Source of the DNA: a virus
Lineage: Duplodnaviria; Caudoviricetes
Reading direction: 5' to 3' (one strand)
DNA length: 64,000 nucleotides
Virus record (IMG/VR): IMGVR_UViG_2974623408_000001
Coordinates: 58,564-122,563 of that record
Within the stretch, counting starts at the first letter, position 1, and each line of letters opens with the position of its first letter. Positions 21,550 to 26,812 of this stretch are shown here, piece after piece. A program made the position numbers and the translations under genes. The notes under the pieces are model-generated. The model had not been told where the DNA came from, did no database searches, and worked only from the letters and a program-made list of their open reading frames with translations.

Positions 21550-21619
21550 TTATAGAGACGAAAACTATTTGTATCAAACACGCGGTCGCCTCAATCGCGC
21601 TCTTCCTGCAGGAAATGTA

Positions 21620-21731
21620 GTGACGATGGTCGAGGATTTGAACCTCGGTTGAGATGAGCTGGCCAGCTGCATCTCAGTTCCCACGAACATCCACGGAGTC
21701 GAACCGCCACACGCGCCAGTGTCATCGTCAC
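21620..21731 (-). ncRNA. Non-canonical five-armed tRNA-like RNA
   Basis: 9-bp terminal stem GTGACGATG/CATCGTCAC, two TTCRA loops, two extra hairpins. Confidence 0.55.
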
Positions 21732-21733
21732 CG

Positions 21734-21816
21734 CGGAAGACGGAGGACTCGAACCCCGTGGCTTTCACACCACGCCCGCGTTCGAAACGGGCTGCGCTAC
21801 CTTACGCACGTCTTCC
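21734..21816 (-). tRNA. tRNA-Ser(CGA)
   Basis: Cloverleaf with long variable arm; G73. Confidence 0.85.
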
Positions 21817-25008: not shown

Positions 25009-25082
25009 TGCAGATGGAAGTAATTGAAACTTCGACCTCGACTGTATCAGAGTCGCGCTCTAACCAACTGAGCTACATCTGC
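25009..25082 (-). tRNA. tRNA-Ile(GAT)
   Basis: CGACT-CTGATAC-AGTCG. Confidence 0.88.
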
Positions 25083-25591
25083 CTGCGTATGTTGCAATTA
25101 CCGCACGACAAAACCAAATTGTCAACTGCGTTGTCGCAACCGTTACCATTTAAATGATCCACAACTATCTTTCCGTGCAGCGATAAAGGCTCGCCGAATA
25201 ACCATGCGATGACGTCCCCGCACCAATAGCACTCGTGTGGTCCTTCTCCGTAATGATCGTACGCTACTTTAGTATGTTCACGTATCCAATAACCCGTAGG
25301 GTGAGCACCAGGATGCGTTCTAACTTCATAACCTACAACCATTTTGTATCCTCCAGCGTCATTCACATGTGTCGGATACGCGCATTCGTGACTACAAAAC
25401 CGAGACTTGCCACGATTCGCTGCAATCAACGTACCACATCGGTCGCAACAACGTTGGCGCGCAATTCGCTTAGCTTCTGTCCAAATTTCACGACAATCGG
25501 ACGAACAAATTGCTCGGTTGCCTTGTCGAGTAAAAGTCTTGTCACAGACTACACACTGGCGTTTCTTTCCTTCGCCACGTTTAGTTCCCAA
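25073..25591 (-). CDS. HNH endonuclease with N-terminal Cys-rich Zn modules
   Basis: CYWC..VDHLNGNGCDNAVDNLVLSCGNCN; stop codon lies inside tRNA-Ile. Confidence 0.88.
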   Translation of the reverse strand: MGTKRGEGKKRQCVVCDKTFTRQGNRAICSSDCREIWTEAKRIARQRCCDRCGTLIAANRGKSRFCSHECAYPTHVNDAGGYKMVVGYEVRTHPGAHPTGYWIREHTKVAYDHYGEGPHECYWCGDVIAWLFGEPLSLHGKIVVDHLNGNGCDNAVDNLVLSCGNCNIRRQM

Positions 25592-25918: not shown

Positions 25919-25992
25919 TTAAAGGAAACTGTTGAGCGAACACCAACAAGAGAAAGGAGACACCACATCAACCCTGCTCAACAGTTTCCTCG

Positions 25993-26066
25993 CACCCACG
26001 GAGAGATTCGAACTCCCGACAACACAGGTTCGTAGCCTGTTGCTCTATCCACTGAGCTACGCGGGT
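25993..26066 (-). tRNA. tRNA-Arg(ACG)
   Basis: ACAGG-CTACGAA-CCTGT. Confidence 0.92.
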
Positions 26067-26067
26067 A

Positions 26068-26596
26068 TGGTGGAGCCGAGGGGAATTGAACCCCTGTCCA
26101 AATGCTTGATCTTCATGCTTTCTACGTGCGTATCTGGTTTTAATACAACCCACCGGGTACGTGCAGGCGTGTACCTCACGGGCACATCTTAAGACCTACA
26201 TACACCAGCAAACCGGTCGGGAGGTTGTGCATTGAGTTTCACACCCCGGTCAATGCACTAACACCAAGGTAAATCCAATCTAATGCTAGCCTTAGTTAAT
26301 CCAGGATACATCGAGCGCTAGCTACCTTATATCCAGGTCCTTATCAGACTAGTGCAGCCTCGTTGGCGTAAGCCTCGATCTCTGCGATGTCTGAATCGGA
26401 AACTACAACATCAGCTTCTGCGTTTGTTGTTTAGTTGCATACGCTTTAGACCAATTGTCTGCTAGGAGTCGAACCTAACTTTTCCTGCATAAGGAACTGC
26501 TAACCATAGCTGCAGACTTGGTCACCGTGGTATCATCAACCATCACACGGGCACGCTTACAAGAGTCACTTACAGATGTCGAAACCTGTCGGCCCC
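26068..26596 (-). ncRNA. ssrA: tmRNA
   Basis: 5' GGGGCCGACAGGTTTCGAC; 3' GGGGTTCAATTCCCCTCGGCTCCACCA with G3-U70; tag ORF AEADVVVSDSDIAEIEAYANEAALV**. Confidence 0.93.
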
Positions 26597-26672: not shown

Positions 26673-26747
26673 TGGCTGGCTATGCAGGATTCGAACCTGC
26701 ACCTTACTCCTTAACAGGGAGCCGCTCTGCCGTTGAGCTAATAGCCA
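26673..26747 (-). tRNA. tRNA-Asn(GTT)
   Basis: GCTCC-CTGTTAA-GGAGT; G73 and CCA. Confidence 0.92.
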
Positions 26748-26779: not shown

Positions 26780-26812
26780 AACATAACGCGGTTGGTTCTG
26801 GATGTCAACCCC
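26780..26812 (-). promoter_or_regulatory. SigA-like promoter heading the tRNA island
   Basis: GGGG-TTGACA-17 nt-TATGTT. Confidence 0.7.

Follow-up and report, generated by a model that had tools for sequence, protein, structure and literature searches.

The window analysed here, a stretch of 64,000 nt, belongs to the 122.6-kb genome of a Godonkavirus-like Gordonia phage with direct terminal repeats, and contains at positions 26068-26596 a gene for transfer-messenger RNA (tmRNA) into which a module shaped like a transfer RNA (tRNA) has been inserted. The gene and all other features of the window given below lie on the minus strand. A match to the Rfam model RF00023 (90.3 bits against a gathering score of 47), collinear and covering model positions 1-374 over the full length, identifies the gene as a complete one-piece tmRNA of the standard form. 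An earlier note, made from the sequence alone, had described this tmRNA as long for its class and had proposed that a second tRNA-like domain is grafted into the region of pseudoknot 1 (PK1). Both descriptions hold. The Rfam match measures 529 nt, compared with 399-444 nt in ten relatives, and the PK1 region contains a discrete, lineage-specific insertion of 77 nt (26447-26523; tmRNA nt 74-150), around which PK1 is intact and covarying. In the RF00023 alignment, this region occupies 105 nt here versus about 20 in the model. The sequence that the earlier note had quoted for the domain is present, reading from 26523 to 26447. The functions that the note had raised as possibilities, namely RNase P cleavage to a two-piece tmRNA, a regulatory switch and a decoy, are hypothetical.

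The tmRNAs of the relatives were located with Rfam in phages GMA2 (412 nt) and Forza (404 nt), in three IMG/VR contigs (399, 423 and 433 nt) and in five metagenome contigs (422-444 nt); these eight contigs (L030, L031, L032, L063, L082, L039, L053 and L069) had been retrieved via a sequence pattern in the conserved region that encodes the tmRNA tag. The alignment with related phage tmRNAs, which the earlier note had suggested, revealed that 10/10 relatives, representing at least four lineages, can be aligned to the window 5' and 3' of the site, where a single clean gap of 77 columns appears. The ancestral junction joins ...CAC(A/G)GU directly to AAG(C/U)G..., and in the window the 77 nt stand between ...CACGGU and AAGCG.... 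Among the twelve tmRNAs compared, the sole other carrier is that of Gordonia phage Phendrix (genus Godonkavirus), the nearest relative among the matches listed. Its insert shows one difference, by which the outermost G-C pair of the stalk that closes the insert becomes G-U and pairing is kept. The tmRNA of the window and the corresponding Phendrix stretch share 97.5% identity. Because the whole neighbourhood (the 15-36 kb area) is 95-98% identical, the identity of the insert is uninformative on selection, and the two phages, being about 97% identical here, are counted as one sample. Insertion is the parsimonious direction of change, as suggested by the ten insert-free relatives of several lineages and by the bacterial consensus, which lacks the insert as well. 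Regarding further copies, an exact 23-mer from the insert gave no match in viral contigs, a 5' tmRNA sequence pattern matched 13 loci of which none (0/13) has a tmRNA, and the SNF2 helicase used as a query returned no related viral loci. The tag-coding pattern supplied three more tmRNAs in viral contigs and five in metagenomes, 8/8 without the insert.

These searches also outline a family of tmRNAs specific to phages, whose tag is acidic and conserved (...TEADFAEIEAFAN...LV or AV). Its loci (L007, L009, L030-L032, L039, L053, L063, L069 and L082) span Gordonia phages of three genera, IMG/VR contigs of 145-167 kb and metagenome contigs. The tmRNA tag of the actinobacterial hosts ends in ...YALAA and is quite unlike the phage tag.

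The position of the insert within PK1 was established from the pairing of its two stems. In stem 1, CCGUG (26546-26550) pairs with CACGG (26525-26529), a pairing found across 10 distinct sequences, and a single U separates the latter strand from the insert. In stem 2, the 5' strand GGUUG-AUG-AUAC (26530-26541) pairs with GUAU-G-CAACU (26433-26442), which lies directly downstream of the insert. In 12/12 sequences, stem 1 and the 5' strand of stem 2 are located 5' of the insertion site, and the 3' strand of stem 2 is located beyond it. Stem 2 covaries with its counterparts in GMA2 (GGUCG-AUU-GGAC with GUCC-G-CGACC) and Forza (GGUCG-AUU-GAGC with GCUC-G-CGACU), the changes being compensatory. Over the 10 distinct aligned sequences, 84% of the cells of PK1 are paired versus 65% in shuffles, and 0/500 shuffles scored as high; stem 1 is 100% paired, with both sides changed in three of its five pairs, and the signal is lost when the partners are slid by 1-3 columns. 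This comparative evidence places the insert in the connecting loop of PK1, between the 3' strands of its two stems, and indicates that both stems are intact despite the insert and covary across the family. The ends of the loop are predicted to be brought back together by the insert's own stalk.

ViennaRNA folds the insert into a closed four-way junction composed of a stalk, an acceptor-like stem and D-like, anticodon-like and T hairpins. The 91-nt stretch around the insert has a folding energy of -28.3 kcal/mol (z = -2.3), and when the insert is folded alone, the pair probability mostly exceeds 0.9 in all five helices. The 6-bp stalk pairs GACCAA (26518-26523) with UUGGUC (26449-26454; p = 0.72-1.0), the latter being preceded by an AA bulge (26455-26456). 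The acceptor-like stem pairs GUCUGC (26512-26517) with GCAGAC (26457-26462) in the ViennaRNA fold (p >= 0.97) and comprises 5-6 bp; the reduced-tRNA (-mt) mode of ARAGORN draws 5 bp and a 2-nt 'CA' linker. The D-like arm GCUA-UGGU-UAGC (26499-26510; p = 0.91-0.95) has a 4-bp stem and a 4-nt loop, and the anticodon-like arm UUCCU-UAUGC-AGGAA (26482-26496; p = 0.74-0.99) is kept in the full-length fold. A variable stretch of 4 nt separates the latter from the T-arm UAGG-UUCGACU-CCUA (26463-26477), which has an optional fifth U-G pair and a pair probability of 0.83-0.91 alone and 1.0 in the full-length fold. Therefore, of the cloverleaf described in the earlier note, the D-like, anticodon-like and T arms on an extended helix are recovered, while the acceptor-like stem has 5-6 bp instead of 7 and the D-loop has only 4 nt. 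The 7-nt anticodon-like loop (UU-AUG-CA) proposed there is not predicted; the loop has 5 nt (UAUGC), and a 7-nt loop would require the opening of a U-A pair of p = 0.91. Among 3000 dinucleotide shuffles of the insert, six formed a closed three-hairpin junction of at least 25 bp and six reached the observed energy. The modelled cloverleaf-like fold is judged to be more than a chance one because shape and energy occurred together in 0/3000 shuffles. The same region contains a 14-codon open reading frame (MQEKLGSTPSRQLV; tmRNA nt 108-152, region 26482-26449) that runs from the AUG of the anticodon-like loop to a UAA past the stalk. It has no obvious ribosome-binding site, and by chance alone an open reading frame of this length would be expected in about half of all cases.

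The insert is tRNA-shaped but is not a tRNA gene. Its helices follow the tRNA order and have near-tRNA lengths. The T-arm is that of a canonical tRNA, as the earlier note had stated, with a 5-bp stem, (U)UAGG-UUCGACU-CCUA(G), the closing pair G53-C61 and the loop nucleotides U54-U55-C56-R57-A58. Within it, the 11-nt segment GGUUCGACUCC recurs unchanged in the T-arms of several tRNAs that the phage itself encodes, and also matches the T-arms of tRNA-Arg and tRNA-Gln of other phages. In real tRNAs, the GG of the D-loop pairs with the T-loop; the D-like arm of the insert, with its 4-bp stem and loop UGGU, keeps this GG, and the equivalents of A14 and A21 are absent. The similarity of the insert to the 30 tRNAs of the phage (best score 13.5) falls inside the range of tRNAs compared with one another (10.9 +/- 5.6). 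ARAGORN in -mt mode draws a 62-nt cloverleaf in the insert, and the Rfam tRNA-Sec model aligns its D- and T-arms, with the UGGU D-loop on the D-like arm, at 16.8 bits against a gathering score of 47. Other parts depart from the tRNA form. Standard ARAGORN calls no tRNA in the insert. Both strands of the acceptor-like stem, which has 5-6 bp and not 7, continue into the 6-bp stalk, so that the insert has neither a free 3' end nor a CCA. The acceptor/T stack amounts to 10 bp (6+4 or 5+5) and not 12, and the anticodon-like loop has 5 nt (UAUGC), the 7-nt alternative having a C at position 37. In the search for a donor, no second copy of the insert was detected in the window, and the insert resembles none of the 30 phage tRNAs more than these resemble one another. 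Among phages, the matches to unrelated tRNAs were limited to the T-arm, and a search in genomes returned mainly a Pelagibacter tRNA with the T-arm alone in common. Judged from its sequence, the insert has its most likely origin in a tRNA or in one of the abundant tRNA-like elements of the phage. Another RNA of this kind, without an anticodon, lies at 21615-21735 (-48.6 kcal/mol, z = -2.4), where a 10-bp stem closes a pair of T-arm-type hairpins. One of these hairpins bears the same GGUUCGACUCC as the tmRNA insert.

Apart from the insert, the tmRNA core looks intact and functional in its sequence. The acceptor stem has 7 bp, pairing GGGGCCG (26590-26596) with CGGCUCC and including G3-U70. The 3' half of the tRNA-like domain proper (26068-26099), delimited by the Rfam alignment and by sequence, comprises an intact T-arm (GGGG-UUCAAUU-CCCC), the 3' strand of the acceptor stem and an encoded CCA. 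The tag reading frame, (A)AEADVVVSDSDIAEIEAYANEAALV followed by a stop, occupies 26344-26421 and was recognised from the sequence and from its homology to the tags that ARAGORN calls in Forza, L032 and L063. The frame is conserved and ends in ...IAEIEAYANEAALV and UGA with a hydrophobic tail (ALV). The resume codon is probably GCA at 26419-26421, 11 nt past PK1, a GCU or GAU two or three codons further on being the alternative that the sequence does not exclude. In the E. coli tmRNA, the spacing between PK1 and the resume codon is likewise 11 nt. Between tmRNA nt ~254 and 497 (~26100-26343), about 40 nt are present in excess of the relatives and are spread over the region of pseudoknots 2 to 4 (PK2-PK4). 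Judged by eye, PK2 seems to use the pairing GGAUAUA/UGUAUCC plus a palindromic GCUAGC pairing.

The tmRNA gene lies within a minus-strand array of 30 tRNA genes that extends over 17.2-26.7 kb of the window. In the same array, a tRNA-Asn gene (26673-26747) is directly upstream of the tmRNA, and a tRNA-Arg(ACG) gene (25992-26066) begins 1 nt past the tmRNA-encoded CCA. No promoter-like or terminator-like site was found inside the tmRNA; the sole promoter-like site nearby, TTGACA-17-TATGTT (26780-26808), is upstream of tRNA-Asn, matches the consensus at 10/12 positions and, on this consensus match only, could be the start of a tRNA-Asn/tmRNA/tRNA array transcript. ARAGORN calls no tmRNA in the window, with the insert or after its removal in silico, and also overlooks the insert-free tmRNA of GMA2. 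Therefore, the insert alone does not explain why the gene is missed. In the GenBank record of Phendrix, the tmRNA stretch between tRNA-Arg and tRNA-Asn (L033 11523-12128; record 83522-84127) is left unannotated. Elsewhere in the array, the window has a 172-codon open reading frame (25073-25591) between tRNA-Ile(GAT) and tRNA-Met, two tRNAs that abut in Phendrix (L033 ~11060), and other gaps in the alignment of the array with Phendrix point to mobile insertions.

The 2025 expansion of the tmRNA database distinguishes three gene forms, namely standard genes, genes interrupted in the T-loop by a group I intron, and permuted genes; it records no tRNA-shaped domain inside PK1 (PMC11915505), and none was found in the literature searched. 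The window gene shares with the standard tmRNA (RF00023; GMA2 and Forza) the alanine-type acceptor with G3-U70, the T-arm, helix 2, the downstream pseudoknots, a PK1 placed eleven nt upstream of the resume codon, and the phage-type tag (...AEIEAF/YAN...LV). It differs by the 77-nt domain in the PK1 loop and by the ~40 further nt in PK2-PK4, which together accompany a length of 529 nt versus 399-444 nt. Intron-containing tmRNA genes are alike in being standard genes with an intervening element, but group I introns are hundreds of nucleotides long, self-splicing and located at four T-loop subsites (PMC11915505), whereas the insert has 77 nt, lies in PK1 and shows no intron features; Rfam found no match to Intron_gpI in the window. 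Permuted two-piece tmRNAs likewise contain a tRNA-type structure in the precursor where tRNA-processing enzymes could cut, and their pieces are base-paired. In contrast, the window gene keeps the standard order of its parts, and its insert lies in PK1 instead of separating an acceptor piece from a coding piece; the insert is also a reduced tRNA mimic that scores poorly as a tRNA and for which cleavage is only hypothesised, whereas the tRNA-Ala of the permuted tmRNA is intact (PMC11915505). The closest studied precedent is the tRNA-like domain of the bacterial and mycobacteriophage YrlA Y RNAs, where a larger non-coding RNA of actinobacteria and their phages likewise contains an acceptor-like stem together with D-like and T arms. 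YrlA is a separate RNA in which a Ro60-binding stem replaces the anticodon arm (PMC4201824), whereas the insert has all four arms within a tmRNA. No sequence similarity between the insert and YrlA was found beyond the T-loop. A reduced cloverleaf in a longer transcript is also found in mascRNA, an embedded processing signal at the 3' end of MALAT1, which has a 7-bp acceptor stem and single-stranded flanks and is a proven substrate of RNase P and RNase Z. The insert differs from it in its 5-6 bp stem that continues into a paired stalk.

The favoured reading, held at about even chances, is that the insert, as a self-contained expansion domain of tRNA origin, is retained on the mature tmRNA. In the Godonkavirus lineage alone, an otherwise ordinary phage tmRNA, functional in appearance, would have acquired a tRNA-shaped module of ~77 nt in the loop that connects the PK1 strands. 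Because its own 6-bp stalk closes it, the module would fold locally and co-transcriptionally as an autonomous four-way junction, and because it is transcribed earlier, it could do so ahead of the synthesis of any distant pairing partner. The module leaves unchanged PK1 and helix 2, the domain that accepts alanine, the distance to the resume codon and the frame of the tag. The module would remain as a protruding domain in which the D-loop GG and the T-loop could form a tRNA-type elbow, and its T-arm would satisfy the known minimal requirements of TruB. The 5-6 bp acceptor-like stem running into a paired stalk would make it a poor canonical substrate of RNase P. As for an adaptive role, the module may, speculatively, give PK1 an additional site of attachment to the A-site finger H38 when the two meet after translocation. 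The elbow of an A-site tRNA is contacted by H38; therefore, a tRNA elbow on PK1 could supply such a contact. After translocation, PK1 is drawn between the subunits onto the tip of H38 (PMC8363625); a recent simulation study proposed that PK1 needs only nominal affinity for H38 to anchor the message, and PK1 tolerates replacement by hairpins (PMC13692277). TruB, for its part, modified the T-loops of the tRNA-like domains of YrlA (PMC4201824).

Several points weigh against this reading. The carriers are only two and nearly identical, so that the insert shows neither covariation nor a sign of selection. All tRNA covariance models stay below threshold, the best of the clan being tRNA-Sec with 16.8 bits, and the general tRNA model RF00005 gives no match at E values up to 10. 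In the nested minimum free energy (MFE) structure of the full-length tmRNA, which takes no account of pseudoknots, the stalk and the acceptor-like and D-like helices are lost; its advantage over the fold constrained to the cloverleaf is only 3.9 kcal/mol out of about -178 kcal/mol. Moreover, a tRNA-sized appendage on PK1 in the intersubunit space might clash, which would favour its removal, and the gene is part of a polycistronic tRNA array in which RNase P is needed at every tRNA, a context for the mimic to meet the enzyme.

The last two points lead to the best surviving alternative, which is nevertheless unlikely, namely that the module is a processing cassette at or around which host RNase P and a 3' tRNA-processing activity cut, nicking the tmRNA or excising the module. 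The outcome, an equally doubtful one, would be a two-piece tmRNA that originates from a non-permuted gene and is broken inside PK1, and a mini-tRNA-like RNA of 62-65 nt might be released. The pieces would be held together by the acceptor stem, helix 2 and PK1 stem 2, with or without the GACCAA/UUGGUC stalk depending on the cut sites. Neither RtcB, SmpB, a CCA-adding enzyme family member nor an RNA ligase was found in the phage genome; therefore, any processing would fall wholly to host enzymes. The insert offers such enzymes a T-arm, a D-loop GG, a G+1 paired to C and an A at the discriminator position, in an array whose other members around the tmRNA are all processed by RNase P, and removal of the module would relieve the possible clash as PK1 enters the intersubunit space (PMC8363625). 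Precedents exist, since permuted tmRNAs, one of which has a tRNA-Ala in the intervening sequence, are split into two base-paired pieces by tRNA-processing enzymes (PMC11915505), and the YrlA of M. smegmatis, a tRNA mimic in a larger RNA, is cut by RNase P and given a CCA (PMC4201824). However, the acceptor-like stem with 5-6 bp and not 7 is somewhat against canonical cleavage, as are the 10-bp rather than 12-bp acceptor/T stack, the would-be leader that is fully paired with the trailer and the lack of an encoded CCA. Chen et al. (2014) observed that only the M. smegmatis YrlA was cut by RNase P, which was attributed to its 7-bp acceptor stem, named there as a major determinant for the enzyme, and that YrlA and Yrn1 RNAs without such a stem escaped cleavage (PMC4201824).

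That the insertion is real but its likeness to a tRNA accidental is rather improbable. On this account, the insert would be a generic closed multi-helix expansion with a T-loop-type hairpin, and T-loop motifs do recur in many structured RNAs; the failure of the tRNA models to reach threshold (none for RF00005, 16.8 versus 47 bits for tRNA-Sec), the silence of standard ARAGORN and the lack of a donor tRNA all agree with it. Coincidence would, however, have to account for four helices in tRNA order with near-tRNA lengths, a GG in the loop of the first hairpin, 11 nt (GGUUCGACUCC) equal to the T-arms of the phage's own tRNAs and a combination of shape and energy that none of the 3000 shuffles reproduced.

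Slightly more improbable still is the proposal that the module acts as a decoy or sponge, titrating a tRNA-binding factor from its place on an abundant, stable RNA. The proposed targets are a host tRNA-targeting defence nuclease, a tRNA-modifying or tRNA-binding protein, or a partner of the other tRNA-mimic RNAs of the phage. The genome does encode another anticodon-less tRNA look-alike, the two-T-arm RNA at 21615-21735, together with a full set of 30 tRNAs. However, the non-canonical anticodon-like loop (5 nt, or 7 nt with C37) means that the substrates of anticodon nucleases are poorly mimicked, and the proposal lacks an identified partner protein and comparative support.

It is very unlikely that the tmRNA was inactivated by the insertion and is a decaying gene. 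The missing ARAGORN call, which persists when the insert is removed in silico, and the absence of annotation in the Phendrix record could be taken in that sense, but the insert-free GMA2 tmRNA is missed in the same way, and G3-U70, the T-arm, the encoded CCA, PK1, the 11-nt spacing to GCA and the conserved tag frame with its ALV end and stop are all intact. Least probable of all is a conformational switch, in which the 5' half of the insert would pair alternatively with the PK2 region (tmRNA nt 298-326) and toggle between two folds; the unconstrained full-length MFE structure, with its advantage of 3.9 kcal/mol, contains this pairing, but the nested calculation ignores pseudoknots, including those in which the partner region is engaged, the strongest duplex of the insert with the downstream tmRNA (-45.9 kcal/mol) is equalled or bettered by 43.5% of shuffled inserts, and the local cloverleaf is transcribed earlier and can fold first.

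On the available sequences, the gene is firmly a tmRNA with an unusual added domain, known from effectively one sequence. A practical point is that it is missed by ARAGORN and has no annotation in the Phendrix GenBank record. The insert also adds to a pattern within this phage, which has several anticodon-less tRNA look-alikes. PK1 enters the intersubunit space behind the tRNA-like domain, comes to rest on the A-site finger and assists in loading the resume codon (PMC8363625, PMC13692277). A natural tmRNA that bears an appendage the size of a tRNA on PK1 thus offers a ready-made experiment: either a bulky elbow in this place is tolerated, or even used, by the ribosome, or the cell removes the module and generates a two-piece tmRNA by a new route. 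If the module proved to be a processing cassette, the gene would represent a fourth form of tmRNA gene beside the standard, intron-containing and permuted forms.

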